Shown here: positions 12,728-36,820 of the stretch, piece after piece
Layout of the letters: the number at the start of each line of letters is the position of its first letter
Position numbering within the stretch: the first letter of the stretch is position 1
Source of the DNA: an uncultured Acidimicrobiaceae bacterium
Lineage (GTDB): Bacteria > Actinomycetota > Acidimicrobiia > Acidimicrobiales > RAAP-2
Assembly: GCA_963718405.1 (NCBI GenBank)
Contig: CAVQYZ010000004.1
Coordinates: forward strand, 66,798-130,797
DNA: 64,000 nt
Direction of reading: 5' to 3'
The notes under the pieces: generated by a model
Told to the model about the DNA's origin: nothing
The model's database searches: none
What the model saw: the letters and a program-made list of their open reading frames with translations, nothing else
Position numbers and translations under genes: made by a program

Positions 12728-13318
12728 ATGGTGCGCTGGGAGGCCGGATCGGACGGGAGGCTGGTGCGGGCGGCCTACGAGCTGTTCGCTGAGCGCGGCT
12801 ACGAACAGGTCACCGTGGCCGAGATCGCCGCCCGGGCCGGGCTGACCAAGCGGACGTTCTTCCGGTACTTCCCCGACAAACGTGAGGTGCTGTTCTCGGG
12901 AGCCGCGGAGTTCCAGGCAGGGGTGGTCTCGGCTGTGGCCGGTGCGCCCGCGGGAAGGGCCCCGATCGATGCCGTGGCCGAGGCGCTGGTACTGGCCGGA
13001 GAGAGCCTCGCCGCCCTCGGCGAACCGGCTCGCCAGCGCCAACGTCTCATCGACGGCTCGCCGGACCTGCGGGAGCGCGAGATGATCAAGATGGCCACCC
13101 TCACGGCGGAGATCGGAGCCGCGCTGGAGCAACGGGGGGTTCCGGCCCAGGTGGCCGGCCTCACCGCTCAAGCGGGGATGGCGGTGTTCAAGACGGCCTT
13201 CGAGCGCTGGGCCGGCCTGGACGGCGACGTTGCGTTCTCGCCTCTCTTCCGGCAAGCGCTGGGTGAACTCCGGTCGGCCATTGATCCGGGCCCCGGGGCC
13301 GAACCGGGCCGTGGGTGA
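12728..13318 (+). CDS. TetR/AcrR family transcriptional regulator
   Basis: HTH ERGYEQVTVAEIAARAGLTKRTFFRYFPDKREVL. Intact 196-aa ORF. Confidence 0.85.
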   Translation: MVRWEAGSDGRLVRAAYELFAERGYEQVTVAEIAARAGLTKRTFFRYFPDKREVLFSGAAEFQAGVVSAVAGAPAGRAPIDAVAEALVLAGESLAALGEPARQRQRLIDGSPDLREREMIKMATLTAEIGAALEQRGVPAQVAGLTAQAGMAVFKTAFERWAGLDGDVAFSPLFRQALGELRSAIDPGPGAEPGRG

Positions 13319-13329
13319 AGCGCAGGCCG

Positions 13330-14743
13330 GCGAATTCGGACGCTGGGCAGCACCTGTCCGGCGGGCCTCGGCGAACCGGGCCAGCGCCTCCTGTCGCTCG
13401 GCCGCATGGTCGACCAGGAGGTCGGGGGCGGGGCCCGGGCCTGATCCGCAACACCGTCCGCGGGTCGCGGGCGGGTGGTGGAGATACCGATCGACGTAGG
13501 CGCCCGTCGGGTCGAAGCGCTCCAGTTGACGCGAGGGGTTGAGCACCCGGTGGAACGGGGCGGCGTCGGTCCCCGTGCCCGCCACCCACTGCCAACCGTG
13601 CTGGTTCGAGGCCAGGTCGCCGTCGACCAGGTGCCACATGAACCAGCGGGCCCCGAGCCGCCAGTCGATGTGGAGGTCCTTGACCAGAAAGCTGGCGGTG
13701 ACCATCCGGACCCGATTGTGCATCCAGCCCTCGGCCAGTAGCTGGCGCATCCCGGCATCGACCAGCGGGTAGCCGGTGGTCCCGGTGGCCCACGCCGCGA
13801 ACCGCTCCCGGGCCCGCTCGTCCGTGTCCCAGCGGAGTCGGGCCCCGAACGCCAACAGTGGGGCGCGCGCCGAGTCGGGCCGGTGCCAGAGCACGTCGGC
13901 GTAGAACTCCCGCCAGGCCAGCTCGGTCCGCAGGCGCTCCGCCCCGGCCCCGGTCCCGAGGAACGACAACACGGTGCGCGGATGGATGCAGCCGAAGCGC
14001 AGGTAGGGCGAGAGGCCTGACGTACCGGGAACGGCCGGCAGGTCACGGTCACGGTCGTAGTCGGCGGCCGGCCCCGCCATGAACCGCTCGAACCGGTCCC
14101 ACGCCGCTACCGGCCCGGCACCAGGGAGGGCCGCGGCGGGGCCGAGGGGGAGGCCCTCCCACCAGTCGGGCAGACCGTGCGACCCGGGGGTGGCCACGGC
14201 CGGCTCCACGGCCAGGTCGCCATGGTCGCTTCCGAGGCCCCGCCACCGGACGTCAGGGGGGAGGGACGGGCCCGGCCACCCGACCCCCTTCCAGGCCCGG
14301 TGGTAGGCGGTGAACACTTTGAACGGGGTGCCGGACCCGGAGCGAACCCGGCCCGGGGCCACGGCGTAGTTGGAGTCGACCGTCATCAGCCGGCGGCCGT
14401 CGGCTGCCAGGGCCTGCGCCACGGCGGCATCCCGGGCCCGACCGTGGGGACCGAAGTCGCCGGTGGCGACCACCACGGCCGCCCCGGCCTCGGCGGCCAC
14501 GGCGGGGACCACCGTGGTGGGGTCGCCGCTCCGTACCACCAGGCCCTCCCCCAGCTCATCATCGAGGGCGGCCACCGCCGCGGCCAGAAAGCGCCGCCGG
14601 TTGGGGCCGGCCGGCTCGAGCAGGGCCGGGTCCGCCACGAACAGGGCCACCACGCCGTCGGGCCCGGCTTGGTGGGCGGCCCGTAGGGCGGGCAGGTCGT
14701 CGAGACGCAGATCCCGCCGGAACCACAGGACGGAGCTGGCCAC
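13330..14743 (-). CDS. phr: deoxyribodipyrimidine photolyase (cryptochrome/photolyase family); 3' end unresolved
   Basis: GTG at 14743 followed by ASSVLWFRRDLRLDD. FAD-binding block TSGLSPYLRFGCI, GYPLVDAGMRQL...GWMHNRVRM, DGDLASNQHGWQW. Ends ...LLVDHAAERQEALARFAEAR near 13340. No stop codon follows in any minus frame until 13188 or lower. Confidence 0.8.
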
Positions 14744-16234
14744 GATCAGGGGGACCGGGGGGTGCCGACGGTGCCGGCGGTGCGGCCGGCTGTGCCCCCG
14801 GTCGGGAGCGAAGCCGCACCCGGCGGGCCCGGCCCCGGACCATGACCCCGAACACCACCCGGTGGACGGGCCACAGCGCCCACCAGTAGGCCAGGCCCAC
14901 GAGGCCCTTGGGCCGGAACGCCGCGGCCTGTTCCACGCCGGTGGGGTCTCATCGATCTGGAGGGCCAGCCAGCCGTCCCCGCAGAACCACCCGACCGAGG
15001 CCAGCACCAGGTGGTCGGGATCGACCCGCTCCACCCGCCACCAGTCGGCCAGTGCTCCGGCCGTGAGCCGGTCGGGCCGCCGGGTCGAGAGCTTCTCGCC
15101 GAACAGCCGGCCCAGCGCCACCCGTAGGGCCCAGGCCCAGGCCAGGCCGTACCAGGAGAGGCTGCCGCCCACATGGGCCAGATCGTCCCGGGCCGCCTCG
15201 ATCCGCTCGGGCTCCAGCGGCGCAGCGGAGCGCATGATGTAGACGCCGGTACCGAGGGGCTCGGACCGGTCGAGCAGGCCGGCGGCGACCCGGTCGGCCT
15301 CGTCGCTGATGGCCCGGCGGACCGCTTCGGTGACCGGCAGTGGGGTGATGCCGAAGGCGGCGAAGGTGCGCTCGGGCTCGTGGACCAGCACCTCGCTCAC
15401 CAGGCTCTCGATCAGGGTGTGGCTGACCCGCCGGTCGACCGGACTGACCAGGTCGACCCAGCGGGCCGACAGCGAGGGGGTGACGAAGGGCACGGTGAAG
15501 ACATGCCGGGGCCGTAGTCCCCTCACCTCGGCGTAGCAGCGCATCATGGTCCCGTAGTCGGTCACGTCAGGCGTGCCGATCTCGTAGATGCCCGGCGGGG
15601 CCGCCAGGGCCCCGGCCAGGTAGTCGAGCAGGTCGCACTCGGCCAGCGGTTGGAGCCGGGTGGTGATCCAGCGGGGGCAGACCATGACCGGCAGGCGCTC
15701 GGTGAGCGAGCGCAACATCTCATAGGAGATGCTGCCGGCCCCGAGGATGACCGCGGCGCGCAGCTCGACGACCGGTACGCCGGAGGCGGCCAGCACCGCG
15801 CCCACCTCCTGGCGGCTGACCAGGTGGGGGGAGAGTTCACCCCGGCCCAGGCCGCCCAGGTAGATGATCCGGCCGACCCCGGCCGATTTGGCGGCCCGGC
15901 CGAAGGCTTCGGCCAGTTGGCGGTCGCGGGCTTCGAACCCGGTGCCGCCGGCCAGGGCGTGGACCAGGTAGTAGGCGGCGTCGGCACCGGCCAGGGCCTG
16001 GGCGGTGCTCCCGGGGTCGGCTACGTCGACCGTCATGGGCGTGATCCGCTCACCGGAGGGCAGGGCGTCCGGAGTCCGGCCCAGGGCCGTCACCTGGTGA
16101 CCGGCCCCGGCCAGCCGGTGGGCCAGCAGCCGGCCCACGTAGCCACTGGCGCCGGCGATGACGATCCGGCGGGCCGGGGCGGTGGGGCCCCGATGTCCCG
16201 TTCCTCCCGCCCCGGTGGCCGGCGGGGCGGTCAC
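14744..16234 (-). CDS. NAD(P)H-binding SDR domain + DUF2867 protein; frameshift near 14940
   Basis: The GTG at 16234 overlaps the stop of the upstream SDR gene (GTGA). RRIVIAGASGYVGRLL Rossmann motif. The DUF2867 tail ...WRVERVDPDHLVLAS..GDGWLALQI continues in another frame as AAFRPKGLVGLAYWWALWPVHRVVFGVMVRG. A TGA at 14744-14746 in the third frame abuts the photolyase GTG. Confidence 0.65.
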
Positions 16235-17277
16235 GGCCCGGCTTCCGGCACGGGCGTCCCGGTCCCGGTGCGGGCCGCACACCAGTCGAGGAGGCGTTCC
16301 GGGTCACCGGGACCGCTCGGGTGGGTGACCGGAAAGCGGTGGTCGGAGCGGGGGTGTCGGTCGTGGAAGAAGCCCCTGGTGATCGGCTCGACCCCGGCGG
16401 CCCGCGCCGCCACCGTCGGTCCCCCGGCGGCCAGCCACACCGCGGTGTCCGCCCCTTCGGTGGGCGTGCGCAGCAGCGGGCGCATCAGGGTGCGGAACTT
16501 CGGTAGGCCCTGGGCCAGGCCGGGGGTGTCCACCCAGCCCGGGTGCATGGCGTAGCTGGCCACCGGCACCGGAGCGAAGCGGTCGGCCCAGGCGTCGGCC
16601 AGCACCAGCTGGGCCCGCTTGGCCTTGGCGTAGGCCACCACGCCGTCGTAGCCGTCCGGTCCGGTCTCGAGGGTGCCGAGATCGAAGCGCTGCGAGTACA
16701 TGCCCCCCGAGCTCATGGTGACGATGGTGGGCGGCACGGAACTCCCGTCGGCGCCACCGCCGGCCGAGGAGAAGAGCAGCGGGGCCAGGGCCGCGGTCAG
16801 CAGGTAGGGGCCCAACACCTGGGTGGCCACGGTGCGCTCCACCCCCTCGGCGGTGGTCTGGTACGTCGGGGTCAGCGCGCCGGCGTTGTGCACCAGGGCG
16901 TCGAGGCGGGCCGCACGGTCCCGGATGCTCCTGCCCAAGGCGGCCACGGCGGTGGGATCGGACAGGTCGACCAGGTGGAGTTGGGTCCGGCCCGGACCGG
17001 CGGCGTCCACCGCGGCGACGGCGGCGGCCCCCCGGACCGGGTCCCGGCCCACCAGGTGCACATCGGCACCGAGGCCGGCCAGGGCGGTGGCCGCGGCCAG
17101 GCCGATACCCGAGGTGGCCCCGGTGACCAGGGCCACCCGGCCGTTCATCGGCGGCGGGTCGCCCCACTCCTCCAGCCGGCGACGGAGCTCGATCCCGACC
17201 CGGCTGAAGCTCGGGGCCACCGTCGCTTCGGCCACGGCGTCCGTGGCCCGGGCCAGGGCGTGCCGGGCACGGTCCAT
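16231..17277 (-). CDS. SDR family oxidoreductase
   Basis: ATG at 17277 lies 3 nt after the SRPBCC stop. GRVALVTGATSGIGLA cofactor motif and YAKAKRA (YxxxK). Confidence 0.85.
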   Translation of the reverse strand: MDRARHALARATDAVAEATVAPSFSRVGIELRRRLEEWGDPPPMNGRVALVTGATSGIGLAAATALAGLGADVHLVGRDPVRGAAAVAAVDAAGPGRTQLHLVDLSDPTAVAALGRSIRDRAARLDALVHNAGALTPTYQTTAEGVERTVATQVLGPYLLTAALAPLLFSSAGGGADGSSVPPTIVTMSSGGMYSQRFDLGTLETGPDGYDGVVAYAKAKRAQLVLADAWADRFAPVPVASYAMHPGWVDTPGLAQGLPKFRTLMRPLLRTPTEGADTAVWLAAGGPTVAARAAGVEPITRGFFHDRHPRSDHRFPVTHPSGPGDPERLLDWCAARTGTGTPVPEAGP

Positions 17278-17279
17278 GC

Positions 17280-17714
17280 TCACGCCGCCAGGGCGCGGCG
17301 CAGGCCGGCGGCGGCCCGGTCCCCGATGCGCCGGAACGAGAGGCCGAGAAGCGGCGTGAACAGGACCGCTCCGCCCTTCAGCTCCAAGGTGGCGTGGTAG
17401 GTGAGGATGGAGCCGCCCTGGGGATCGGGAACGACCTCGATCACGTCGGTGGATCGCACCAAGGCGTTCTCCGCCCGGAGCACGACCCGGTGGGGACGCT
17501 CGTACTCCTCGATGCGGTAGTTGAGGGGGATGGACCGACCGTAGTTCCGAACCACCAGCCGATAGGTGGCGCCCAGGCCGGTCGCCCCGGGGTCGTCCTC
17601 GGTGGCCTCGGCCACCCCGGGGTCCCACCGGGCGGCGTTGGAGAAGCGGGCCATGTAGTCGAAGACCTCAGCCGGGGGCCACCGAGAGGTGACGCGTGCA
17701 CGGTAGGTCGCCAT
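17280..17714 (-). CDS. SRPBCC (polyketide cyclase/dehydrase-like) family protein
   Basis: 144-aa ORF with VFDYMARFSNAARWDPGV..YRLVV and a length typical of the family. First gene of the minus-strand operon. Confidence 0.8.
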   Translation of the reverse strand: MATYRARVTSRWPPAEVFDYMARFSNAARWDPGVAEATEDDPGATGLGATYRLVVRNYGRSIPLNYRIEEYERPHRVVLRAENALVRSTDVIEVVPDPQGGSILTYHATLELKGGAVLFTPLLGLSFRRIGDRAAAGLRRALAA

Positions 17715-17722
17715 CCCGGTAG

Positions 17723-17738
17723 TTTAGTACTAAATAAC
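17723..17738. promoter_or_regulatory. AT-rich palindromic motif TTTAGTACTAAATAAC (copy 1)
   Basis: The perfect 12-bp palindrome TTTAGTACTAAA sits in the 82-bp divergent region between the SRPBCC and FAD-oxidoreductase operons. It is very AT-rich against a roughly 70% GC background. Confidence 0.4.
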
Positions 17739-17796
17739 ATCCGGGGCTCGTGCAGTTTCGAATAACGGGTGTCCGACGGCACGAAAGAGACAGCTC

Positions 17797-19047
17797 ATGC
17801 GGATCGCCATCATCGGCAGCGGGGTATCGGGCCTGGTCACGGCCCACCTGCTGCGCGGCCACCACGACATCGTCCTCTACGAGGCCGACGAGCGCCCGGG
17901 AGGCCACTCCCACACCCACCGGATCGAGCTGCCCGAGCTGACCTGCGATGTCGACACCGGGTTCCTGGTCTACAACGAGCGCACCTATCCCTTGTTCTCC
18001 CGCCTGCTCGACGAGCTCGGGGTGGCCTCCAAGCCCAGTGACATGAGTTTCAGCGTGGCCGACCAGCGCACCGGCCTCGAGTGGCGGGGAACGTCGTTCT
18101 CCACCGTCTTCGCCCAGCGGCGCAACCTGGCCCGGCCCGACTTCTTGCGGATGCTGGCCGACGTGGCCCGTTTCAACCGGCTGGCCCGGGGGCTGCTGGC
18201 CGACCCGCCGCCCGACGGCGTGACCCTGGAGGAGGTCCTGGCCCCACACCGCTGGTCGGCCGGCTTCCGCCACTGGTACCTGGTCCCGCTGGGCTCATCG
18301 ATCTGGTCGGCCGACCCCTCGACGTTCACCCAGATTCCCGCCGCCACCTTCGCCCGCTTCTTCGAGCGCCATGGCCTGCTCCGACTGCGCGACCAGCCGA
18401 AGTGGCGGACGGTGGACGGTGGCTCGAAGCGTTACGTCGACGCCATCCTTTCCCCGTTGCGGCAGGAGGGCCGGCTCCGACTGGGGAGCCCGGTGGCCAA
18501 GATCCGCCGCAACCCCGGTGGCGTGGAGGTGGTCAGCGAGGCCGGCGTCGAGACCTACGATCACGTCGTGCTGGCCACCCACAGCGATCAGGCCCTGTCG
18601 CTGCTGTCGGACCCCGACCGGGTGGAGCGCCAAACGCTCAGTGCCTTGCGCTACCAGTCCAACCGGGCCGTCCTGCACACCGACGTCAACCTGCTACCCA
18701 CCGAGCGCCGGGCCTGGGCCAGCTGGAACTACCACCGACTGGAGGCGGAGCGGGACGAGGCCACGCTCACCTACTACCTGAACCGTCTCCAGGGCATCGA
18801 CTCGGCCACCCCCGTACTGGTCACCCTCAACAATGACGCGGCCATCGACCCCGGCAAGGTACTGGGCCACATGGAGTACGCCCACCCGGTGCTGGATCCG
18901 GCTGCGGCACAGGCCAAGACCCACCACGGGGAGATCAACGGCACCCGGCGCACCTGGTTCGTCGGCGCCTACTGGGGCTACGGCTTTCACGAGGACGGGG
19001 TACGTAGTGCGGTGGAGACGTGCCGGGCCATGGGGGTGGTGTGGTGA
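17797..19047 (+). CDS. NAD(P)/FAD-dependent oxidoreductase (amine-oxidase fold)
   Basis: MRIAIIGSGVSGLVTAHLL...YEADERPGGHSHT dinucleotide-binding start. Intact 416-aa ORF. Confidence 0.85.
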   Translation: MRIAIIGSGVSGLVTAHLLRGHHDIVLYEADERPGGHSHTHRIELPELTCDVDTGFLVYNERTYPLFSRLLDELGVASKPSDMSFSVADQRTGLEWRGTSFSTVFAQRRNLARPDFLRMLADVARFNRLARGLLADPPPDGVTLEEVLAPHRWSAGFRHWYLVPLGSSIWSADPSTFTQIPAATFARFFERHGLLRLRDQPKWRTVDGGSKRYVDAILSPLRQEGRLRLGSPVAKIRRNPGGVEVVSEAGVETYDHVVLATHSDQALSLLSDPDRVERQTLSALRYQSNRAVLHTDVNLLPTERRAWASWNYHRLEAERDEATLTYYLNRLQGIDSATPVLVTLNNDAAIDPGKVLGHMEYAHPVLDPAAAQAKTHHGEINGTRRTWFVGAYWGYGFHEDGVRSAVETCRAMGVVW

Positions 19048-19973
19048 GCGCCCCCGGTGTTGCCACCCCACTGGCCCTGTACCCCGTGGAGGATGCGGTC
19101 GGCGGGGTGGAACACGATCGGGCCCCAGCCACCTGGCCCGACCGGGACCCCAACGGCCTGCGCAGCGCGGTGTACGAGGGTGTGCTCCTCCACAAGCGCT
19201 TCGGGCCCGGGCCGAGCCACTCGTTCCGCTACCGGGTGGCCATGCCGTTGCTCGACCTGGCCGAGGTCGATGAGGTGATGGACCTCCACCCGGCCTGGTC
19301 CGCCCGCCGCCCCGCCCCGGTCCGGTTCCGGCGCCAGGATTTCTTCGGTGACCCGGCCACACCCCTCGACCAGGCCGTGCGGGACCTGGTGGCCGAACGT
19401 ACCGGGAGGCGTCCGGTGGGCCCCGTGGCCGTGCTGGCCAACGTGCGCACCTGGGGCTGGTTGTTCAACCCCATCAGCCTGTACTTCTGCGCCGACCCGG
19501 CCGACCCCGGGGGCGGACCGGGACAGGTCGACTCGCTGGTGGCCGAGGTGGAGAACACGCCCTGGCACGAGCGCCACGCCTACGTGGTCGGCCCTCCGGG
19601 GAGGCACCGATTCGCCAAGGAGCTCCATGTGTCGCCCTTTCTCCCGCCGCGCCTCGACTACGAGCTCCGCTACACCGCTCCGGGATCACAGCTCACGGTG
19701 GGCCTCACCGTGCTCGAGGGCGACCGGAGGCTGTTCGACGCCACGCTCCTCCTGCGTCGTCGGGCCCTCGATCGGGCGGCACTGGGCCGCTTGCTGTGGA
19801 ACTATCCGGCCATGACCCACCGCGTCACCGCCGGCATCTATGCCCAAGCCGCCCGCCTCCGGCTGAAGGGCGCTCCGTTCTTCAGCCATCCGACCGACCG
19901 GGGCGCACCGGGGGCCGGCGGAACCACCTGCCCCGCCCCATCCGCGCCGGTACCCATCCGGACCGGGCCATGA
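19044..19973 (+). CDS. DUF1365 domain protein
   Basis: The GTG at 19044 overlaps the upstream stop (GTGA). Family-typical SAVYEGVLLHKRFGPGPSHSFRYRVAMPLLDLAEV and WGWLFNPISLYFC. The exact start is uncertain. Confidence 0.75.
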   Translation: MSAPGVATPLALYPVEDAVGGVEHDRAPATWPDRDPNGLRSAVYEGVLLHKRFGPGPSHSFRYRVAMPLLDLAEVDEVMDLHPAWSARRPAPVRFRRQDFFGDPATPLDQAVRDLVAERTGRRPVGPVAVLANVRTWGWLFNPISLYFCADPADPGGGPGQVDSLVAEVENTPWHERHAYVVGPPGRHRFAKELHVSPFLPPRLDYELRYTAPGSQLTVGLTVLEGDRRLFDATLLLRRRALDRAALGRLLWNYPAMTHRVTAGIYAQAARLRLKGAPFFSHPTDRGAPGAGGTTCPAPSAPVPIRTGP

Positions 19974-21398
19974 CCCGGTCCCATGGTCTGGTGGACAGTG
20001 GCGCCTCGCCGGACGGCCAGGTCGTGGACATCGGGGCGGGAGACCGCTCCCGGGCCAGCCGCCCCGGGGGGGCCGGTGTGGCCTCCAACCGCGCCGACCT
20101 GACGCCGATCCGGTCGGCGCCGGAACAGCCTCCGGCCGAGGTGCGCTTCCGGGCCACCCTGGGCCACGTGGCCCCGCCCGACCGATTCGCCGGCAGCAGC
20201 CTGGCGCGCCGGATCGTGCTGGCGGCGGGACGGTACGCCGGCGGCGGGGCCATCGAGATCACCGAGGGAGACGACACGTTCCGCCTGGGCCGGGGTGAGC
20301 CCCTGGCCCGGGTGACGGTGCACGACCGCCGGGCCTATGGCGCCCTGCTGCGGTCGGCCTCGGTCGGCCTGGGTCGTTCGTATGTGGCCGGATGGTGGGA
20401 TACCGACGACTTGACCGGGCTGGTTCGGGCCCTGGTCCGTGACACCCGCCCGTTACGCGAGCGATTGGATCGGCTGGGGAGGGCCTGGGGCGCCCTGTTG
20501 GACGTCCCGGCCCGCCTGGCCGCCCCGGGTCGGGACGAGGACAAGCGGAACATCGCCGACCACTACGACCTCTCCAACGACTTCTTCGCCCTGATGCTGG
20601 ATGAGACCATGACCTACTCGTGCGCGGTGTTCGACCGGCCCGGGGCCACCCTGGCCGACGCTCAGGAAGCCAAGATGGACCGGCTCTGCGCCAAGCTGGA
20701 GCTGGCCCCCACCGACCACCTGGTCGAGGTGGGCTCGGGCTGGGGTGGCCTGGCGGTCCACGCCGCCGTCAACTTCGGCTGCCGGGTGACCACCACCACC
20801 ATCTCCGAGGCGCAGCGTTCCTACGTGGAGCGGCGGGTGGCCGACGCCGGGCTGTCCGACCGCATCACCGTGCTCGGGCGGGACTGGCGGGATCTCACCG
20901 GACGGTACGACAAGCTGGTCTCGGTGGAGATGATCGAGGCGGTGGACTGGCGATGGCACGACCGGTTCCTGGCCCGGTGCTCCGATCTGCTCGCCGATGA
21001 CGGGCTGGCCGCCATTCAGGCCATCGTCATCGACGACCGCAGCTTCGAACGGGCCAAGCGCCACGATGACTTCGTCCGCCGGATGGTCTTCCCCGGCGGG
21101 TGCCTCCCCTCGGTGGCCTCGCTCACCACCAGCCTGGCCCGGGCTACCGACCTGCGCCTGGTGGACCTGGAGGATGTCGGCCGCCACTACGCCGAGACGC
21201 TGCGGCGTTGGGCGGACAACCTGGACGCGGAACACCGAGGCGGTCACGGCCCTCGGGGTCAGCCCGGAGTTCCGCCGTCTGTGGGACCTGTATCTGGCCT
21301 ACTGCGAGGCGGCGTTCCTCGAACGCCACATCAGCGACGTCCAGCTGGTCCTGGCCAAGCCGGGCCGGGCCGCACGATTGACGACGCGACCCGGATGA
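19970..21398 (+). CDS. cyclopropane-fatty-acyl-phospholipid-synthase-family SAM methyltransferase; frameshift near 21235
   Basis: The ATG at 19970 overlaps the DUF1365 stop (ATGA). HYDLSNDFFALMLDETMTYSCAVF, SAM motif VEVGSGWGGLAV, SVEMIEAV. The C-terminus continues in another frame as EAVTALGVSPEFRRLWDLYLAYCEAAFLERHISDVQLVLAKPG. Confidence 0.8.
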
Positions 21399-21520
21399 GG
21401 ACCTCCCCGCGGCCCGGCCACGCGCTCAGACGGGGTCGGCCCGATGGGACCCGGAGCGCGCAACCCGGTCCCCGCTGACCGACCCGGTAGCCGGACCGCA
21501 GGCCCGACCGGGGCGAGCCG

Positions 21521-22351
21521 TCAACGGCCGGCGGCCAGGCCCTCGATGACCCGGACCAGATCGTCGCCCCGGCGCCCGGTGAAGCCGTCGGCCCCGAGGC
21601 GACGGGCATGGTCGGCGTCGGTGACGGCGGCTCCCCCCAGCAAGACCGTGGTGCCGGGAAGGGCCTCATGCAGATGGGTGACCACCCGGCGGGCCGAGGT
21701 CGTCGAGGCCCGGGTGGTGCAGGCCATGGCCACGGCCAACAGATCAGGCACGCCGGTCAGCGCCTGGGCCAGGGCGTCGGCCGGGGTGTCCGCACCCAGC
21801 TCGATCACGTTGAAGCCGGCCCACCGCAACAGATCGGCGGCGATGGCCACCGGGGCCGAGTGCTGCTCGGACGGCGGCGTGGTGATGACCACGCTGCCGC
21901 GCTTGGGACCGCGGCGGGCGAATCGGGCGCCGAGGCGCGAGATGAGCCGAACGGCCACCGCACTGGCCCGGTGCTCATCGGCCACGGTGAGTTCGCCGGC
22001 GTGCCAGCGCTCCCCGATGGATTCGAGGGCCGGGGCCACCAGCTGCAGGAGGACCTGGGAAGGAGAGTGGTCGGAGGCCAGGGCGGCTTCGAGCACACCC
22101 CAGGCGCCTGGTTCGTCGCCGGCCAGGAGCCGGGCCTCGAGCTGCTTGGCCGTGGCGGCCCGGGCCCCCGGCTTCCGGCCGCGGTGGGGGGAAGCCGGCC
22201 TCATCCGGGCCAGGTCATCGGGGTCGACCTGCCAACCACCGCCGACGCGGGTGGCCGGGAGCTTGCCGGTGCGGACGTAGCGATAGACGGTCATGTAATG
22301 CACGCCCAACGTGTCCGCCGCCTCCTGCAGGGTCAATGGCGCTTTTGGCAT
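21521..22351 (-). CDS. transcriptional regulator: excisionase-type (MerR-superfamily) HTH + cobalamin-binding domain
   Basis: N-terminus LTLQEAADTLGVHYMTVYRYVRTGKLPATRVGGGW (HTH_17 type). C-terminal Rossmann-like B12-binding module VVITTPPSEQHSAPVAIAADLLRWAGFNVIELG...LLAVAMACTT...VLLGGAAV. Confidence 0.75.
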   Translation of the reverse strand: MPKAPLTLQEAADTLGVHYMTVYRYVRTGKLPATRVGGGWQVDPDDLARMRPASPHRGRKPGARAATAKQLEARLLAGDEPGAWGVLEAALASDHSPSQVLLQLVAPALESIGERWHAGELTVADEHRASAVAVRLISRLGARFARRGPKRGSVVITTPPSEQHSAPVAIAADLLRWAGFNVIELGADTPADALAQALTGVPDLLAVAMACTTRASTTSARRVVTHLHEALPGTTVLLGGAAVTDADHARRLGADGFTGRRGDDLVRVIEGLAAGR

Positions 22352-22386
22352 CTGGGCTTTCTCGACTCCGGCTCGCTGTCGGCGAA

Positions 22387-22402
22387 TTTAGCAGTAAATA
22401 CA
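22387..22402. promoter_or_regulatory. AT-rich motif TTTAGCAGTAAATACA (copy 2)
   Basis: Lies in the 117-bp divergent region between the B12-domain regulator and the STAND regulator. Matches copy 1 at 12 of 14 positions (TTTAGnAnTAAATA). Confidence 0.35.
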
Positions 22403-22468: not shown

Positions 22469-25015
22469 ATGGCCGCGGCTACGGTCAAGGAGGTGATCCG
22501 ATTCGCCGACTGCGAGTTGAACCTGGACCGCATCGTCCTGCGACGGGGTGGCGAGGAGATCCGGGTCGAGCCTCAGGTATTCGACGTGCTGGCCTACCTC
22601 GTCCAGCACCGCGGCACGGTGGTGCGCAAGGAGGAACTGCTCGACGCCATCTGGGGCGATCGATTCGTGAGCGAGTCCGCCCTCACCACGCGGATCAAGG
22701 CGGTCCGCCAGGCCGTCGGTGACGACGGCAGCCAGCAGTTGATCATCCGGACGGTGCATGGCAGGGGCTACGAGTTCGTGGCGGCGGTGGAGGAGATGGA
22801 CGAGGGTCGGTCCGACGTGGCCCGGCTGCCCCTGGCCGCGGGAGCTTCCATCGGCGTCCGCCTGCAGCCGTTGATCGGTCGCGAGACGTTGCTGGAGCAG
22901 CTGGGCGAGATGATCGTCGACCACCGGCTGGTCACGTTGATCGGTCCGGGGGGCGTGGGGAAGACCTCGCTGGCCATGGAGCTGGCCCGCACGGTCGGTG
23001 GCCACTTCGAGGACGGTGTCCACGTGGTGGAGTTGGTGGGCGTCATCGATCCGGACGCCACCGCCGCCGCTCTGGCCACGGCCGTCGACGTCAACCTGCG
23101 GAGGTCGAGCTCCATCGACGATGCCATCGTCGATCTGCTGCGCTCCCGGCACACACTGTTGGTGCTGGACAATTGCGAGCACCTCATCGAGCCGGTGGCC
23201 GAGCTGGTGGCGCGCCTCCTCCGCGACGCCCCGGCCATCTCGATCGTGGCCACCAGCCGCGAGCCCCTGGCGGTGGCCGGTGAGCGCCTCTGGACCGTGG
23301 ACCCCCTGCCCACCGGGCCCGAGGATCTGTCGGCGTCCGATGCCGGGCTCGGCCAGCTGGCCGACATTCCGGCCGTGGCCCTCTTCGTGGCCCGGGCCAA
23401 GGCCGCCGATCCCTCCTTCGCCCTCGACGAGGCCACCGGTCCCCTGGTGGCCGAGATCTGCCGGCGCCTCGACGGGATCCCCCTGGCCATCGAGCTGGCG
23501 GCAGCCCGGGCCCGGGCCATCGGCGTGGTCGAAGTGGCCCAGCGGCTGGACCAGCGCTTCGGGGTGCTCAAAGCCATGCGGAGAGGGAGCGATCCGCGCC
23601 ACCGGACCATGCACGACGCCATCAGCTGGTCGTACGACATGCTCGAACCTGACGAGCGGGACCTGTTCACCTCGCTGTCGGTGCTGGCCGGATCGTTCGA
23701 TCTCCACTCGGCCGAAGCCATGGCGCCAGGGGTCGACACGCTCGACGTGTTGACCCGACTCACCGAGCGCTCCATGCTGGCCGTGCGTCCCCAGGCCGGG
23801 GGTTCGACCCGCTACGAGCTGCTCGAGACGCTCCGCGAGTACGGGCGGGCCCGCCTGAGTGACGCCCAGTCCGCCGAGCTGTTCGCCACCCACGCCCGGC
23901 ATTTCGCGGCCGAGGCCGAAGCAGTGGAGGCGGAGCTGGGTGGTCCCGGTGAAGGTGATGCCAGCACCTGGGCAGGATCCTCGCTGGCCGACCTTCGGGC
24001 CGCCCAGCGCTTCGCCCTCGAGCTCGGGGCCTTCGACATCACCTTCGGTCTCATCGGCTCGATCCGTGAGTTCGCCATGCGGGCCATGCGCTACGAGGTC
24101 TTCACCTGGGCCGACGCCGCCTGCCAGGCGCCGGGGGCGCTGGACCACCCCCTGGCCCCCCTGCTGACCGGGATCCGGGCCTACGGCGCCTGGGTACGCG
24201 GCGAATTCGATCTGGCGGTAAAGCTGGCGGAGGAGACCCGCCACCTCGAGGACCGGCTGTCGGTCTTTCCCAGTGGCCTGGCTGAGCGGACCTTGGCCAA
24301 CGTGCTGTACCTGGAGGGCGACCCGACGAGGGGCCACGCCGAGGCCCTCCGCCAGATCGAGCTGGCCGAGGAGTCGGGGAACCGGTCGCGGCTGGTCCAC
24401 GCCTGCTACCTGGGGGCGGTGGGCCACAGCTCCAACGACGCCTACGACGAGGCCGAATCCCTCATCGAACGGGCCCACCGGGCGGCCAAGCTGACGGCAT
24501 CGCCGACCGACCTGGCCTCGGTGGCGGTGGCCCGCGGGTTTGCCAGCAGAACCGAGGACGAGGCCCTGGAGGCCTTCACCGCCAGTGCCCGCATAGCCCG
24601 TGCCGCCGGGAACCGCTGGATGCACGGGTTCGCCTTCACCGAGGCCAGTGGGCTGCTGGTCTCCCGGGGCCAGCTCGAGGTGGGGTGCGCCGGTCTGGCC
24701 GACATGGTCGGAGTCTGGGACCGCGCCGGGGACTGGTCCCAGCAGTGGCACACCTTGTCGCGCTGTGCCATCGCCCTGGATCAGATGGGCCAGGACGAGC
24801 TGGCCATCGAACTGCTCGGAGCCATCGAGAGGCACGCCATGCTGGGTGTGGCACCGATGTCGAGCACCCTGCACGACCTGGCCTTTGCCACCAGGGACCG
24901 GCTGGTGGACACCCTGGGGGCGGAGCGGGCGGGCGAACTGCTGGCCGCCGGCGCCATCTGCCCGGTCGAAGACATCGTGTTGCGGACCCGCCGGGCGCTC
25001 ATCGGGGCCGGCTGA
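22469..25015 (+). CDS. AfsR/SARP-like STAND regulator (OmpR-type winged helix + NB-ARC P-loop NTPase + TPR-like C-terminus)
   Basis: N-terminus FADCELNLDRIVLRRGGEEIRVEPQVFDVLAYLV...IRTVHGRGYEF. Walker A GPGGVGKTSLA and Walker B LLVLDNCEH. Long helical-repeat tail. Intact 848-aa ORF. Confidence 0.8.
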   Translation: MAAATVKEVIRFADCELNLDRIVLRRGGEEIRVEPQVFDVLAYLVQHRGTVVRKEELLDAIWGDRFVSESALTTRIKAVRQAVGDDGSQQLIIRTVHGRGYEFVAAVEEMDEGRSDVARLPLAAGASIGVRLQPLIGRETLLEQLGEMIVDHRLVTLIGPGGVGKTSLAMELARTVGGHFEDGVHVVELVGVIDPDATAAALATAVDVNLRRSSSIDDAIVDLLRSRHTLLVLDNCEHLIEPVAELVARLLRDAPAISIVATSREPLAVAGERLWTVDPLPTGPEDLSASDAGLGQLADIPAVALFVARAKAADPSFALDEATGPLVAEICRRLDGIPLAIELAAARARAIGVVEVAQRLDQRFGVLKAMRRGSDPRHRTMHDAISWSYDMLEPDERDLFTSLSVLAGSFDLHSAEAMAPGVDTLDVLTRLTERSMLAVRPQAGGSTRYELLETLREYGRARLSDAQSAELFATHARHFAAEAEAVEAELGGPGEGDASTWAGSSLADLRAAQRFALELGAFDITFGLIGSIREFAMRAMRYEVFTWADAACQAPGALDHPLAPLLTGIRAYGAWVRGEFDLAVKLAEETRHLEDRLSVFPSGLAERTLANVLYLEGDPTRGHAEALRQIELAEESGNRSRLVHACYLGAVGHSSNDAYDEAESLIERAHRAAKLTASPTDLASVAVARGFASRTEDEALEAFTASARIARAAGNRWMHGFAFTEASGLLVSRGQLEVGCAGLADMVGVWDRAGDWSQQWHTLSRCAIALDQMGQDELAIELLGAIERHAMLGVAPMSSTLHDLAFATRDRLVDTLGAERAGELLAAGAICPVEDIVLRTRRALIGAG

Positions 25016-25024
25016 CCCCAGGCG

Positions 25025-26279
25025 TCAGCGTGACGTCAGGGTGCGGGCCCGACCGACGGACTCCAGGTACCCGACCAGGTGTTGACCGAGATCGGCGGCG
25101 TCGAGGCCCAGCCCGGCCAGCAGGTTCGAACGGCGACGCCGGAGGAAGGGGAGCCCCAGGAGGTAGAGGCCCGGCAGGCTGGCCACACCGCCGTCGTGGT
25201 CGACCCGGCCGCGCCGGTCGAGGGCCCGGGGATCCAACCAGCCGTACGTGGGGCGGAAGCCGGTGGCCCAGACCACCGTCCCGAAGCGGGCCAGGTCGAG
25301 CTCGGTGGGCACCTGGTGGAGGACGGTCGGGCTCGGCTCGACGGCCGGGCCGACCAGATGGGCCATCCGGTGCCGGTCGACCCACTGGTCGATGCGGCGG
25401 AGGAGCCGGGCCTCCTTCAGATCGGCGTTGGCCACCAGGCTCCCCAGGCCCCCTGAGCACAACGCCGTCCGGCCCCGGACGGCCATGAGGCGCCCCACCG
25501 GTTGGACGCCGAGCTCCTGTAGCGAGGCGAGGTCCACCTCCCGTCCCTCGTCACTGCCGACCACCTGCACCGAGGCGTGCCGGCGGGCCCGCTGGAGGTC
25601 CTCCACCTCGTCCCACCGCTCGTCCAGCTGGCCGATCCGGTCCAGCCACCGGTAGATGTCCCATCCCCGGTACGAACGGGGCAACCGTATGTGCTCGCCG
25701 ACGGCGATGGTCACCTCGCGGCCGGCCCGCGCCAGCTCGTCGGCGATCTGGACCCCGGAGGCCGAAGCTCCCACCACCAACACCCGGCCCCCGTCGTCGA
25801 TCTGGGCCGGCCGTCGGTAGGACAGGGAGGTGAGCTGTTGCGACGGCCTGGGGGAGTTCGGAGGCCAGAGCCGGCACCCGGGGCTCACTGGACCCCCCGG
25901 TAGCCGCCACCACGGCGTCGCACCGCCAGGTCCCCCCGGTGGTGCGGACCTCGAATCCGGAGCCGGTTCGACACGCCGCCTCCACCTCGACTCCGACGTG
26001 GAGGGGCGGGTCGAAGGAGCGTCGGTAGGCCTCCAGGGTCGAGACGGTCTCCGCCGCGGTCATGTACCCGTCCGGGTCGTCACCCTCGTAGCGGGTGCCG
26101 GGCAGTGCCGTCATCCAGTTGGGGGTCAGCAGGCGGAGCGAGTCCCAGCGTTCGGTTCGCCACGAGTTGGCCACCTCTCCCCGTTCGAGCAGCACATGGT
26201 CGATGCCGGCCCCGGTGAGGCCGTGGCTCATGGCCAGACCACCGGGGCCGGCTCCGACGATGACGACCGACGTATGCAC
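25025..26279 (-). CDS. FAD/NAD(P)-binding flavin-monooxygenase-like oxidoreductase; frameshift near 25850
   Basis: MHTSVVIVGAGPGGLAM (first GxGxxG) in ORF 25551-26279. Second dinucleotide site RVLVVGASASGVQIADEL and ATGFRP in ORF 25025-25888. Confidence 0.7.
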
Positions 26280-26309
26280 TGTCAGGCTCTCCGTAGCGCC
26301 TGGTGTGGT

Positions 26310-26873
26310 TCAGGCCACCGTGACCTGGACGGTGGTGGGGTTGGTGATGATGTCGAAGACCGCGGATCGCTTCTGGGACTGCGCCACGATGGCCTCGATG
26401 TCGGCGGGACTGGCATCGGCGTCGATGTCGAACCGCACGTCGATGCGGTCGAAGCCGTTGCGGACGTCAGCGTCGATGCCGAGGATGCCCTGGAGGTCCA
26501 TCCCCCCCTGCACGGTGGCGGTCACCGAGCGCAGCTGGACGCCGCGGTTGGTGGCCACGGTGGCCACGCCGGCGGTCAGGCAGGAGGCCAGGGCCCCGAG
26601 GACGATCTCCGGAGGGGTCACCCCGTTGTCCTCCGAGGCGAAGACCTCGGGGTGGTCCGCCTCGATGGTGTAGGCCTGCCGGTGGGAGTGCTGGTCGCCG
26701 AGGCCGGAGAAGTCGGTGATGGTGGAGCGGCTGTGCGTGCCGCTCACCCACTCGCAGCGGGCCCGCCACTGGAACTGCGCGGCCTCGGGCGCATCGGTCA
26801 GCGCCTGGCGGGCGCCCCGGAGGGCCTCGATGTTGACGCCGTTGTCGACGGTGGGGGCTTCGGTCTGGGTCAT
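26310..26873 (-). CDS. OsmC family protein (peroxiredoxin-like)
   Basis: PPEIVLGALASCLTAGV core of OsmC/Ohr. Intact 187-aa ORF. Confidence 0.85.
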   Translation of the reverse strand: MTQTEAPTVDNGVNIEALRGARQALTDAPEAAQFQWRARCEWVSGTHSRSTITDFSGLGDQHSHRQAYTIEADHPEVFASEDNGVTPPEIVLGALASCLTAGVATVATNRGVQLRSVTATVQGGMDLQGILGIDADVRNGFDRIDVRFDIDADASPADIEAIVAQSQKRSAVFDIITNPTTVQVTVA

Positions 26874-27014
26874 GGTGGGTCCTCTCGGTCGGTGTGCGAC
26901 AGCGGGATGTCGTCGCTGACTCCACTATCGGGGATGGCCGCCCGCAGGTCATGAAGACGGGGTGGTTATCCCCTGACCGTCGTCACCAGGAGATCTTCAC
27001 AAGAACTTCAAGAC

Positions 27015-27866
27015 TTGTCCGATCGCCGGCCTGATGATGGAACCATGACATCCCACTACGAAGACACGGACACGGCGGTACCGCCCCACCGCTGGGAGGA
27101 GGCGGGGGAGGCCTGGGGGAGCCGGGCCGTCGACTGGTCGTGCCTCTACGAGCACTACTCGCTCGACGTGTTGGTGGCGCTGCTCCCGAGGCTCGGCGTC
27201 GGCCCGGGGACCTCGCTCCTCGACGTGGCCTGCGGTTCGGGATTGGCCGTCCGGGTGGCCGCGGGCATGGGGGCCGACGTGGCCGGCATCGACGCCGCCG
27301 CCGAGCTCATCGGGGTGGCGTGCGACCGCACCCCGACCGCGGACCTGCGGGTCGGGTCGATGTTCGAGCTCCCCTGGGCCGACGGGCGGTTCGACGCCGT
27401 CCTGTCGGTGAACGGCATCTGGGGCGGCTGCGGGGTGGCGCTGGAGGAAGCCCATCGGGTGCTGCGACCCGGGGGGCTGGTGGCCATCAGCTTTTGGGGG
27501 CCGGGGCCACCCCTGGACATCCGGGAGGTGTTCAAGGTCTTTGCGTCGCACGCTCCCGAGCAGCACCGGAACTCCATGCGACGCCTCAACGACATCGCCG
27601 CGCCGGGCGTGGCCGAGGAGATGTTGGAGAGGAGTGGCTTCTCGGTGCTGGAGCGCGGCGGTCGGGTCTCGACCATGGAATGGCCGGACGCCGACACGGC
27701 ATGGCGGGCCATATCCAGCGTGGGACAGGCGGTTCCGGCCCTGGGCTCGACCGATGCGACCATCCTGCGCCAGGCCGTGCTGGCCGCCCTCGAGCCGTGC
27801 CGGGATCGGCGTGGGGTGTACCGCACCCGCAGCGACCACCAGTTCGTGGTGGCCAGACGGCGGTAG
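27015..27866 (+). CDS. class I SAM-dependent methyltransferase
   Basis: Motif I LLDVACGSGLAV. Post-I GIDAAAELI. FDAVLSVNGIW and LRPGGLVAISFW. The start may be the ATG at 27045 rather than the TTG at 27015. Confidence 0.8.
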   Translation: MSDRRPDDGTMTSHYEDTDTAVPPHRWEEAGEAWGSRAVDWSCLYEHYSLDVLVALLPRLGVGPGTSLLDVACGSGLAVRVAAGMGADVAGIDAAAELIGVACDRTPTADLRVGSMFELPWADGRFDAVLSVNGIWGGCGVALEEAHRVLRPGGLVAISFWGPGPPLDIREVFKVFASHAPEQHRNSMRRLNDIAAPGVAEEMLERSGFSVLERGGRVSTMEWPDADTAWRAISSVGQAVPALGSTDATILRQAVLAALEPCRDRRGVYRTRSDHQFVVARRR

Positions 27867-27999
27867 TCGGGAGTCACGCTACGGGGCTCGACAGGCTCAG
27901 CCGGTAGGATCCCGACGGTTCAGCTGCCGCCGAGGCGGGGCGGAAGGTTGACGGATCACCACCACCCGTCCAGGTGCCGGGCAGAGGGGGAGTCGGTGC

Positions 28000-29445
28000 G
28001 TGATGCCGCAGGGGGTTCAGAGCGCCGGAAGAGCTTCGGCGGTGCCCGGTGGGCCTTCCTTGAGAGGCGGGCGACCGGCGCACCATGGCCGTCCCCAGGT
28101 CTGGGTGGTGGCGAGCCTGGCCGTCGCAGTGCTCTCGGCCTGCGCGGCCACCGGGCCGGCCGCCGAGACCCAGGCGGCACCGCCAGCACGGCCAAGGCCG
28201 GGACGGTCTCGCCCAAGGACTCCCCGGACCACCGTGGCGCACCAGGCCACATCGACCTCGGCCCCGGCCCGACCGGCCGCCACTACCTGGTCTCTGGTCA
28301 CGGAGCCCGACCAGGGGATGGGGGCCATCTACTCGCTGATGTCCAGCCCCCGGCACACCCTCGATATGACCATGTACGAGCTCTCCGATCCTCAGGCGGT
28401 GGCCATCCTGGAGGCCGACGCCCACCGGGGCGTGGTGGTGCGGGTCCTACTGGACAGCGAGTACGAGAGCTCCTACAACCAGCCCGCCTTCACCTCGCTC
28501 AGCTCCAACGGGGTCCAGGTCCGCTGGGCCCCCTCCGGCACCATCTTCCATCAGAAGACCATCACCGTGGACGATCGGACCTCGGCCATCATGACCCTCA
28601 ACCTGACCAGTGCCTACTACCCGACGTCCCGGGACTTCGCCGTGGTCACATCGGATGCTCAGGATGTGGCCGCCGTCGAACAGGTCTTCAACCAGGACTG
28701 GAGCGGGTCGGGAGCGCCGGTGGCGGGCCCGACCGGCCTCGACCTGGTGTGGTCCCCCGGGGCGGAGGGCCCCATCGTGTCGCTCATCGACTCCGCCCGG
28801 ACCTCCCTGCTCATCGAGAACGAGGAGATGGACGACCCCGCCGTGACGAGCGCCCTGGAGGCCGCGGCCCAGCGGGGGGTCAAGGTGGAGGTGGTCATGA
28901 CCTACTCGTCGTCGTGGGCCGACGCCTTCGGCCAGTTGGTTGGCGCCGGCGTGAAGGTGAGCACCTACCCCAGCAACGGTCCGCTCTACATCCACGCCAA
29001 GGTGGTTGTGGCGGACGGAGCGTCGGTGTTCCTCGGCAGCCAGAACTTCTCCGTGTCGAGCCTCGACTACAACCGGGAGCTGGGCATCATCACCGGCAAT
29101 CCGGCACTGGTCGGAGCGGTCTCCCGGACCGTCAGCGCAGACTTCGCCGGAGCGACCCCGTTTCAGGTCCCCACCGCCACCCCTGGTGCCAGCCCGCCGG
29201 CCACCGGTGGAGGGCCGTCGTGCCGTGCCACGGCGGCGCCGGCCAACGACGGGTACCCCGAGGACTACGACGTCTTGGTGACCTCCAACCAGCCGGACCA
29301 AAAGGCCACGGCGTCAGACGCCAGCAACAGCTGGAGCGAGTACACCAACGGATCCGGGTCGGCGACGATTCTCCTCTACCACACCAGTCCGGGCGAGGAG
29401 ATCACGGTGGCGGTCGGCGGCGCCCAGTGCTCGACCAGCGCCTAG
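28000..29445 (+). CDS. phospholipase D-family lipoprotein with two HKD motifs
   Basis: Lipobox-like VAVLSAC. HKD1 [13 protein letters not shown]2 [21 protein letters not shown]. An extra C-terminal module of about 90 aa contains two Cys. Confidence 0.85.
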
Positions 29446-36802: not shown

Positions 36803-36820
36803 GACGCCGACACCCCACCT

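Follow-up and report, generated by a model that had tools for sequence, protein, structure and literature searches.

Two divergent operons for photorepair and furan-fatty-acid-type synthesis beside a B12-domain regulator in an uncultured Acidimicrobiaceae bacterium, and a palindrome common to their control regions

Light sensing through B12 is well understood for one architecture only, that of the MerR-type CarH/LitR proteins acting on carotenoid genes, and other architectures with B12 domains lack experimental evidence (PMC10979010, the photocobilin paper). The subject here is a locus in 64,000 nucleotides of DNA from an uncultured Acidimicrobiaceae bacterium of soil (assembly GCA_963718405.1, contig CAVQYZ010000004.1, forward-strand positions 66,798 to 130,797), the whole of which is called the window and whose first letter is position 1. 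In it, an operon ending in a photolyase gene and a divergent operon resembling the furan fatty acid genes ufaD-ufaO-ufaM stand beside the gene of a regulator that joins an excisionase-type helix-turn-helix (HTH) to a B12-binding module. A conserved 12-base palindrome on the promoters suggests that the B12 regulator turns the photorepair and ufa genes on in light, and in our judgement the locus is probably a regulon for protection against light, repressed by a B12-based photoreceptor whose architecture is uncharacterised.

In CarH and the other class I LitR proteins (Thermus thermophilus, Myxococcus xanthus, Bacillus megaterium, Streptomyces), the winged-helix DNA-binding domain is N-terminal and is followed by a two-part sensor consisting of a helix bundle with the motif Wx9EH and a Rossmann fold with a histidine ligand, and the regulator described here has the same domain order and the same sensor. 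Four features characterise CarH according to PMC9304148: the recognition helix RxWERRY, the motif Wx9EH, the B12 motif, and an operator of tandem 11-bp direct repeats. The same source takes Wx9EH, when intact and combined with the B12 motif, as the sign of a photoreceptor CarH, and describes CarH operators as lying over promoter elements. In its classic form the B12 motif reads D/ExHx2G/P-x41-SxT/V-x22-27-GG, the His being the lower axial ligand (PMC9304148). The logic predicted here is again the same, with a dark repressor, an operator lying over promoter elements and autoregulation. However, CarH has a MerR-type domain with RxWERRY, whereas the regulator here has an excisionase-type HTH_17 domain without it. 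The CarH operator comprises three or four tandem 11-bp direct repeats nnnnTnnACAn (PMC9304148), in contrast to the one 12-bp palindrome found here, which overlaps a predicted -10 element, and the targets of CarH are carotenoid genes rather than photolyase and furan-fatty-acid genes.

Similar effector genes have been linked to regulators of other kinds. According to PMC9758184, class II LitR proteins of Pseudomonas putida (PplR1-3) control 19 light-inducible genes including phrB and ufaM, the pmlR1 region of P. mendocina carries phrB, a short-chain dehydrogenase/reductase (SDR) gene, a flavin adenine dinucleotide (FAD) oxidoreductase gene, ufaM and genes for hypothetical proteins, and class III LitR has a similar role in Burkholderia (B. 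multivorans). Nearly the same target set adjoins the regulator in these systems (PplR1-3, PmlR1/2, B. multivorans) and is light-inducible under LitR control (PMC9758184), and neither class can bind B12, class II consisting of the helix bundle only with a light-oxygen-voltage (LOV) photoreceptor as partner and class III having an unrelated C-terminus, whereas the B12 module here is complete. Their DNA-binding domains are of the MerR type, unlike the HTH_17 domain here. In Vibrio cholerae, the MerR-like VCA0056 is a small HTH regulator whose gene is predicted to form an operon with the photolyase gene phr (VCA0057) and VCA0058; it autoregulates and is required for the blue-light transcriptional response (PMC5241685). 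This protein acts alongside ChrR-sigmaE, with reactive oxygen species as the proposed signal (PMC5241685), and is class IV LitR-like without a B12-binding domain (PMC9758184), unlike the regulator here. The LitR homologues compared that act on this gene set are without a functional B12 module, and the characterised B12-dependent CarH/LitR proteins control carotenoid genes.

Matching effectors are also found in the sigmaE-ChrR regulon of Rhodobacter sphaeroides, namely an FAD desaturase, a DUF1365 protein, a methylase resembling cyclopropane fatty acid (CFA) synthase and an SDR (RSP1087-1091, RSP2144; PMC7380195), to which a preliminary description of the present locus added photolyase. In that system singlet oxygen frees the extracytoplasmic function (ECF) sigma factor from the anti-sigma factor ChrR, whereas here the palindrome is common to a B12-domain regulator and the window has no sigma or anti-sigma gene. 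Among B12 modules of known structure, those of the photocobilins (SasPcob of Saccharothrix syringae and AbDPcob of Acidimicrobiaceae, the latter from the same lineage; PDB 8j2w/8j2x/8j2y) come nearest in both sequence and fold, with 35% identity, E = 1e-24 (profile), an rmsd (root-mean-square deviation) of 1.8 A and alignment of both W-x9-EH and E/D-x-H. In photocobilins this module is fused to a globin that binds bilin, in some cases together with a diguanylate cyclase, and the proteins control enzymes, whereas in the present protein it is joined to a DNA-binding domain and there is no globin. A literature search returned no published description of an excisionase-HTH plus B12 regulator or of its palindromic operator. 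Automated annotation already names some members "MerR family light-induced transcriptional regulator".

Operons and regulator of the locus

The G+C content of the window is about 70% around the locus, which makes raw lists of open reading frames (ORFs) noisy; gene bounds were fixed by codon-position GC bias, Pfam domains and orthologue alignments, with the following result.

13340..14743, minus strand: photolyase of the class-I cyclobutane pyrimidine dimer (CPD) type, closing the minus operon, with its GTG start at 14743
14746..16234, minus strand: gene for an NAD(P)-binding (NmrA/SDR-like) plus DUF2867 protein, GTG start at 16234 overlapping the SDR stop (GTGA)
16231..17277, minus strand: SDR gene (Pfam adh_short, 1.2e-24), ATG at 17277, 2 nt past the SRPBCC stop
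17280..17714, minus strand: SRPBCC gene (Pfam Polyketide_cyc2, 1e-16), heading the minus operon, predicted leaderless
17715..17796, no strand: divergent control region of 82 bp common to both operons, compared with orthologous regions
17723..17734, no strand: candidate operator 1, perfect palindrome TTTAGTACTAAA within the divergent control region
17797..19047, plus strand: UfaD-like FAD oxidoreductase of the amine-oxidase/phytoene-desaturase type (Pfam Amino_oxidase, 1.3e-22; NAD_binding_8, 5e-13)
19044..19973, plus strand: UfaO-like DUF1365 gene (Pfam DUF1365, 6.3e-63), GTG start overlapping the preceding stop
19970..21398, plus strand: UfaM-like, CFA-synthase-like methyltransferase dependent on S-adenosylmethionine (SAM) (Pfam CMAS, 1.5e-72, profile positions 4-236 of 273)
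21521..22351, minus strand: regulator of 276 aa with HTH_17, B12-binding_2 and B12-binding domains (Pfam)
22387..22398, no strand: candidate operator 2, TTTAGCAGTAAA, upstream of the regulator gene

Synthesis of furan fatty acids needs UfaM, UfaD and UfaO (Lemke et al., PMC7380195), which are respectively a SAM-dependent methylase, an FAD desaturase resembling phytoene desaturases and a DUF1365 protein, and in Rhodopseudomonas palustris the genes are ordered RPA2571-2570-2569, that is ufaD-ufaO-ufaM (PMC7380195). All three enzyme types are present here (Amino_oxidase with NAD_binding_8, DUF1365 and CMAS), the plus operon has the order of RPA2571-2569, and its stop and start codons overlap (GTGA at 19044-19047, ATGA at 19970-19973). 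Since both the enzyme types and their order match RPA2571-2569, the plus operon is read as a ufaD-ufaO-ufaM-like unit. This order is kept in related loci with the same layout and in rearranged ones such as L060, L066 and L073 of the survey below. For the methyltransferase, NCBIfam gives just generic CFA-synthase matches, which fall below the cut-off. The products expected of the ufa-like genes are methylated or furan fatty acids, which would act as scavengers of singlet oxygen in the membrane.

The minus operon is as tightly packed as the plus operon, with junctions TGA-gc-ATG at 17282-17275, GTGA at 16234-16231 and TGA-tc-GTG at 14748-14741. Its photolyase has an N-terminal DNA_photolyase domain (Pfam, 2.4e-39) and a C-terminal FAD_binding_7 domain (1.2e-61), and among NCBIfam models those for CPD photolyases lead (294 and 286 bits; 8-HDF-type, with 8-hydroxy-5-deazaflavin, and PRK10674) over cryptochrome/DASH models at about 185 bits, all of these scores lying below the curated cut-offs. 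The preceding gene matches NAD_binding_10 (7.7e-17) and DUF2867 (7.7e-08), and an SDR orthologue aligns across 17364-16249 by tblastn. With this content (SRPBCC, SDR, NAD/DUF2867, CPD photolyase), the minus operon would serve light-driven repair of DNA damaged by ultraviolet light. An assignment of the SRPBCC gene as an Rv0910-type toxin was rejected, the match scoring 40 bits against a cut-off of 100.

The regulator has an excisionase-type winged HTH at residues 6-49 (HTH_17, 6.7e-12, 45.9 bits against a cut-off of 27; TIGR01764 "excise", 43.1 bits against 28.8), and the only PDB match to its N-terminus is the excisionase Xis Gp37 of a mycobacteriophage. Residues 65-260 make up the B12-binding_2 plus B12-binding module (1.1e-14 and 5.7e-12), and PDB matches to CarH span residues 69-258 only. 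Within the four-helix bundle, Wx9EH is intact (W116-HAGELTVAD-E126-H127), and W116, E126 and H127 are invariant across 18 aligned homologues of 59-100% identity. The Rossmann B12 domain reads E162-Q-H164-SA-P167 ... A-C-T ... G239-G240, where E-x-H-x2-P ... GG is found in 18/18, as is a relaxed form of the B12 pattern. The best solved relatives are light-sensing B12 modules, the photocobilins 8j2w/8j2x at 1e-24 (profile) and CarH of T. thermophilus (TtCarH) at 1e-15, the others being photocobilin 8j2y and a MerR-B12 protein of Chloracidobacterium. Moreover, Foldseek aligns an AlphaFold2 model of the regulator (pLDDT, the predicted local distance difference test, 85.8) with full-length TtCarH over 285-295 columns. 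On its sequence the regulator is CarH-like on the sensor side, yet outside the CarH family. Among 8,000 candidates scored, proteins with HTH_17 and B12 domains make up at least 1,693 clusters at 90% identity. Stretches encoding such proteins number at least 579 in species-representative genomes, mostly of Acidimicrobiia.

The preliminary description had listed a minus-strand operon of SRPBCC, SDR, NAD-binding/DUF2867 and photolyase genes, whose order and strand are borne out by Pfam, and a divergent plus-strand operon of FAD oxidoreductase, DUF1365 and CFA-synthase-like genes with GTGA and ATGA junctions, which lie where given above. It had also placed an HTH and cobalamin-binding regulator after the plus operon. 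Such a gene is present, but on the minus strand, and is convergent with the ufa operon rather than co-directional with it. The likening of this protein to CarH/LitR-type regulators holds for the B12 sensor module but not for the DNA-binding domain, which is HTH_17 without RxWERRY.

The palindrome in the window and in related loci

Exact matches to the pattern TTTAGNANTAAA occur in the 64 kb only at 17723-17734 and 22387-22398, the two candidate operators. When up to one mismatch is allowed there are 5 matches, with the perfect palindrome counted on both strands, against 0.05 expected in 64 kb. The one-mismatch matches at 50583-50594 (minus strand, TTTAGCAGTAAG) and 53766-53777 (plus strand, TGTAGGAATAAA) lie in an AT-richer, low-GC island and were judged to be chance occurrences.

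Operator 1 with its flanks presents, on the minus strand, the hexamer TAAACT at -12 to -7 from the SRPBCC ATG. The end of the palindrome is exactly 8 nt from the SRPBCC start codon in 21 of the 32 scored sequences (the window and 20 loci), and in those 21 the base two positions past the palindrome is T, giving TAAAnT at -12 to -7. Because actinobacterial -10 elements follow the rule TANNNT and the spacing is conserved, TAAAnT is predicted to be the -10 hexamer of a leaderless SRPBCC transcript. The symmetric hexamer on the other strand, TAAATA at 17731-17736 here and TAAATT or TAAACT in many relatives, is similarly predicted to serve the promoter of the ufa operon. Operator 2, read on the strand of the regulator, is ATTTACTGCTAAATT; it contains the hexamer TAAATT and ends 35 nt before the regulator ATG. 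It is an asymmetric near-copy, and the same variant stands upstream of the regulator in L001-L005, L007, L010, L012, L013 and L017. From this position and sequence, autoregulation of the regulator is predicted.

For comparison, 80 loci totalling 1.33 Mb were fetched from species-representative genomes via alignment of regulator homologues (L numbers), nearly all of them from metagenome-assembled genomes (MAGs) of Acidimicrobiales/Acidimicrobiia with few from other Actinomycetota, and synteny was scored by tblastn with the window proteins. In 44 of the 80, a ufaD-like gene is found no more than 10 kb from the regulator, and because it recurs to this extent the arrangement of cluster and regulator is far beyond chance. 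The ufa genes have the layout of the window in all 17 closest loci (60-89% regulator identity), and adjacency is conserved down to about 40-50% regulator identity, through rearrangement of gene order. Loci that are rearranged but still associated are L046, L052, L060, L063, L066, L071, L073 and L079; in L060, L066 and L073 the ufa operon and the regulator point the same way, and in L046, L063, L071 and L079 the regulator is divergent from the ufa operon and has the SDR and photolyase genes after it.

The palindrome follows the same associations. Exact TTTAGNNCTAAA sites number 52 in the 1.33 Mb, against 0 in 10 shuffles. A palindrome site stands before the UfaD-like gene in 43 of the 44 loci carrying that gene and before the regulator in 40 loci, and the remaining 19 sites are all within about 1 kb of the regulator. 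The upstream regions themselves have diverged past recognition with the palindrome retained, which constitutes a phylogenetic footprint.

Some further observations concern the surroundings of the regulator. Operator 2 sits in a 117-bp intergenic region common to the B12 regulator and a divergent AfsR/SARP-like gene (22469-25015, plus strand) encoding an 848-aa protein with an OmpR-type winged HTH and NB-ARC/AAA domains, and co-regulation of the two genes is uncertain. This AfsR/SARP-like STAND regulator was rejected as part of the system, having a single weak match in related loci (38%, about 6 kb off in L042), and so was the TetR gene at 12728-13318, which has none beside the regulator there. 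In distant members of about 50% regulator identity, an ECF or sigma-70-like gene beside the regulator is preceded by 1-2 operator copies (L044 10901-11541, L074 4526-5154, L076 2569-3609 and L056 upstream of the regulator). Streptomyces has a LitR-LitS cascade, and by analogy these loci suggest a cascade variant of that kind. A variant site, GATTTA(C/T)CAGTAAATGG, occurs upstream of the regulator in L033, L035, L043, L048, L053 and L065, where it separates the regulator from a gene further upstream that is conserved and encodes a protein ending in "...IKDHMAEGGDDKE".

Proposed mechanism, sequence defects and rival explanations

The mechanism proposed draws on gene content, on the synteny, on the sensor motifs and on the common palindrome, which is conserved and keeps a fixed spacing. 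In the dark, the regulator would bind adenosylcobalamin (AdoCbl) and, probably as one dimer per site, attach to the palindrome TTTAGyrCTAAA. Each half-site, taken with one flanking base pair, would supply the -10 hexamer (TAAAnT) for one of the two divergent promoters, of which one would be leaderless. The bound regulator would repress rather than activate, blocking RNA polymerase at both operons, and at the weaker asymmetric copy (operator 2) it would block the promoter of the regulator itself. Light would then break the Co-C bond, so that the regulator would lose its DNA-binding form and all three promoters would fire.

Several results weigh against this proposal. The regulator scores 16.7 bits with MerR_1, below the cut-off of 21.6, and 79.1 bits with NF052513 (TransRegCarH) against a cut-off of 400, aligning over residues 67-255 only; the motif RxWERRY, or RxWExxY/F, is absent from the window regulator and from 17 homologues. 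In the B12 domain, the Ser of the classic motif is Ala in 18/18, the sole failure of the strict pattern. Light sensing by the regulator is predicted from homology of the sensor module. The putative operator is a single 12-bp inverted repeat, TTTAGyrCTAAA, and not a set of tandem 11-bp direct repeats, and with a single palindrome the tetramer mechanism of CarH is therefore not simply transferable. Scanning both control regions for E. coli-type promoters gave nothing, as did a terminator scan, and both are uninformative for Actinobacteria. The methyltransferase could be a non-essential paralogue of the RSP1089 type instead of UfaM. Finally, the ufaM-like and DUF2867 genes are frameshifted in this sequence and the photolyase gene is without a stop.

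These frame defects can be located by means of the orthologues. The DUF2867 and photolyase genes sit in a single open frame of 1196 codons, but a fusion was rejected, the orthologues being two genes with a TGA-n2-GTG junction that is present here too. In the DUF2867 gene, tblastn with orthologues gives frame -1 over 16303-14939 and then -3 over 14936-14850, and a DNA alignment shows the gene to be 1 base short near 14938, where 7/7 orthologues have that base. A second indel probably follows, because the frame needs another shift to reach the TGA at 14748-14746. The methyltransferase gene switches from frame 2 to frame 3 near 21226 (tblastn with orthologues), where it has 1 extra base relative to 7/7 orthologues (DNA alignment), and its C-terminus YCEAAFLERHISDVQLVLAKP is encoded in the other frame, 20997-21398. 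Photolyase orthologues align over 14743-13340 in a single frame, and homology ends at about 13340, the orthologues stopping a few codons after "...FAEARR". Here the frame has no in-frame stop and remains open to 12692, with about 215 codons lying antisense to the TetR gene that converges on it (12728-13318), and the approximately 120 bases checked across the end of homology (13260-13380) contain no stop triplet in any frame. The missing stop could reflect a point change, an indel or a rearrangement at this non-conserved junction.

Two 1-bp indels at places where all 7 orthologues agree, together with a missing stop, all inside 9 kb, are what would be expected if the cluster were decaying, with real frameshifts, a truly lost photolyase stop and a system that is non-functional in this organism. 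We consider this unlikely. Three unrelated genes elsewhere in the window are frame-split in the same way (SBP_bac_5, 60-1797, minus strand; Pyr_redox flavoprotein, 25028-26320, minus strand; SDR, 36790-37593, plus strand), which indicates that 1-bp indels occur assembly-wide, beyond the photoprotection cluster, and because these genes share the defect the indels of the locus are probably assembly errors rather than signs of decay. Codon-position GC bias also stays strong on either side of the shifts, and many related assemblies bear MFD isolate names, which we take to denote long-read MAGs and hence assembly indel errors. For a functional cluster, the signal could still be another one. B12-binding_2 and B12-binding modules also occur in non-photoreceptors such as methionine synthase and corrinoid methyl-transfer proteins (1e-17 to 1e-15, profile), and the Ser-to-Ala change is found throughout the regulator family, so the protein might sense cobalamin availability or redox state, or bind methyl- or hydroxocobalamin without photochemistry of relevance in vivo. 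The targets, photolyase and singlet-oxygen lipid genes, are however sensible only for a light signal; Wx9EH, by which PMC9304148 separates photoreceptor CarH from B12-independent CarA, is invariant; and the nearest solved relatives are photoreceptors (photocobilins, CarH), which together make such a role improbable.

If light is the signal, its effect might be exerted by a MerR-style light-dependent activator, or a dual regulator, instead of a repressor released by light. The winged helices of HTH_17 and MerR are akin, activation from a palindrome within the promoter is common among MerR proteins, and the MerR-like light regulator of V. cholerae has been reported to suppress or enhance its targets (PMC5241685). 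Against this, the palindrome coincides with a -10 hexamer 8 nt from a leaderless start, it is not placed within a long -35/-10 spacer in the manner of MerR activator sites, and every AdoCbl-CarH protein characterised represses in the dark state from an operator that overlaps the -35 or -10 (PMC9304148); we regard activation as a poor prospect. It is also conceivable, though very improbable, that a singlet-oxygen ECF sigma/anti-sigma pair encoded elsewhere mainly controls the cluster and that the neighbouring regulator has another role. In R. sphaeroides this effector set is part of the sigmaE-ChrR regulon (the preliminary description, PMC7380195), the same operator precedes sigma-factor genes beside the regulator in the distant loci L044, L074 and L076, and the window covers just 64 kb of the genome, leaving room for further regulators including an ECF sigma factor, which also counts against the proposed B12-dependent repression. 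Within the window, however, no sigma-70-family or anti-sigma domain was found among 47 composition-selected ORFs, and the sigmaE-type motif TGATC-N16-19-CGTA, rejected as a control element here, has just two matches, both intragenic, against 0.87 expected. The sole conserved element of the control region is the palindrome, which is common to the promoter of the regulator itself. No LOV gene was seen in the window either, and an Rfam scan of its whole length gave no match, so it has no cobalamin riboswitch and no tRNA.

These results agree with the claim of the preliminary description that the window contains no sigma or anti-sigma gene, and its proposal that the effector set is wired to a B12 regulator rather than to an ECF pair receives support in silico from the common palindrome, the conserved adjacency and the footprint at 43/44 loci. 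Lack of conserved adjacency in relatives had been named as an outcome that would speak against this wiring, and the survey found adjacency to be conserved. The statement that the wiring had not been characterised needs to be narrowed, given that B12-independent LitR homologues control phrB, SDR, FAD oxidoreductase and ufaM genes in Pseudomonas; as far as the literature search went, it stands for the combination of excisionase HTH and B12 module.

The wider window and what the locus may mean

Other parts of the window contain features of a different nature. Just beyond the regulator pair, a run of redox/stress-type genes at 25028-31780 includes genes for an OsmC-like protein (26313-26924), a SAM methyltransferase, a phospholipase D (PLD)-family protein, a Baeyer-Villiger monooxygenase resembling flavin-containing monooxygenases (FMO-like, 29405-31450) and an antibiotic biosynthesis monooxygenase (ABM); it has no associated operator copy. 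A hybrid histidine kinase with two receiver domains and no Pfam-recognisable sensor (4307-6136, minus strand) appears unrelated to the photoprotection locus. Further along lie genes for a tyrosine integrase (38347-39369), a PIN toxin (39613-40038) and an AbiEii-like nucleotidyltransferase (40828-41364). Past them the G+C content falls to 0.51-0.60 (50000-58000), and the integrase/toxin stretch and low-GC region are probably an integrated element or genomic island. Two secreted-looking proteins (41576-43201, plus strand; 57933-59042, minus strand) carry multiple repeats of about 40 aa, "...GYWLVAADGGVFSFGDAxFxGSMGG...", for which no Pfam family is found at E <= 1e-4; the protein at 41576-43201 also has a C-terminal Beta-lactamase2 domain.

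For one of the B12-domain architectures beyond MerR-type CarH/LitR, the locus offers a candidate operator, a core regulon (photolyase and ufaD-ufaO-ufaM) and a promoter geometry, all of which makes it testable. The same photo-oxidative effectors would stand under three sensing systems across phyla, namely ECF sigma/ChrR, LOV with class II LitR and the B12 sensor described here, a comparison that is informative on how stress regulons are rewired. Additionally, a compact B12 photoswitch that binds a palindrome could serve optogenetics in high-GC Gram-positive hosts.

A broader reading, for which we see about even chances, is that the proteins combining HTH_17 and B12 domains form a separate large family of AdoCbl photoreceptor-repressors, which arose when an excisionase-type winged helix was joined to the light-sensing module of CarH. 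As dimers, the members of such a family would recognise one 12-bp palindrome, which at leaderless and divergent promoters would also be the -10 element. The family would be the master switch by which light controls photoreactivation and the making of furan fatty acids in Acidimicrobiia, with a sigma cascade in some lineages. Acidimicrobiia are abundant and mostly uncultured in soil and water, and their light responses are little known. If this reading is true, DNA recognition in the family would be unlike that of the CarH tetramer on direct repeats, and for the first time a B12 photoreceptor would be directly linked to the remodelling of membrane lipids.

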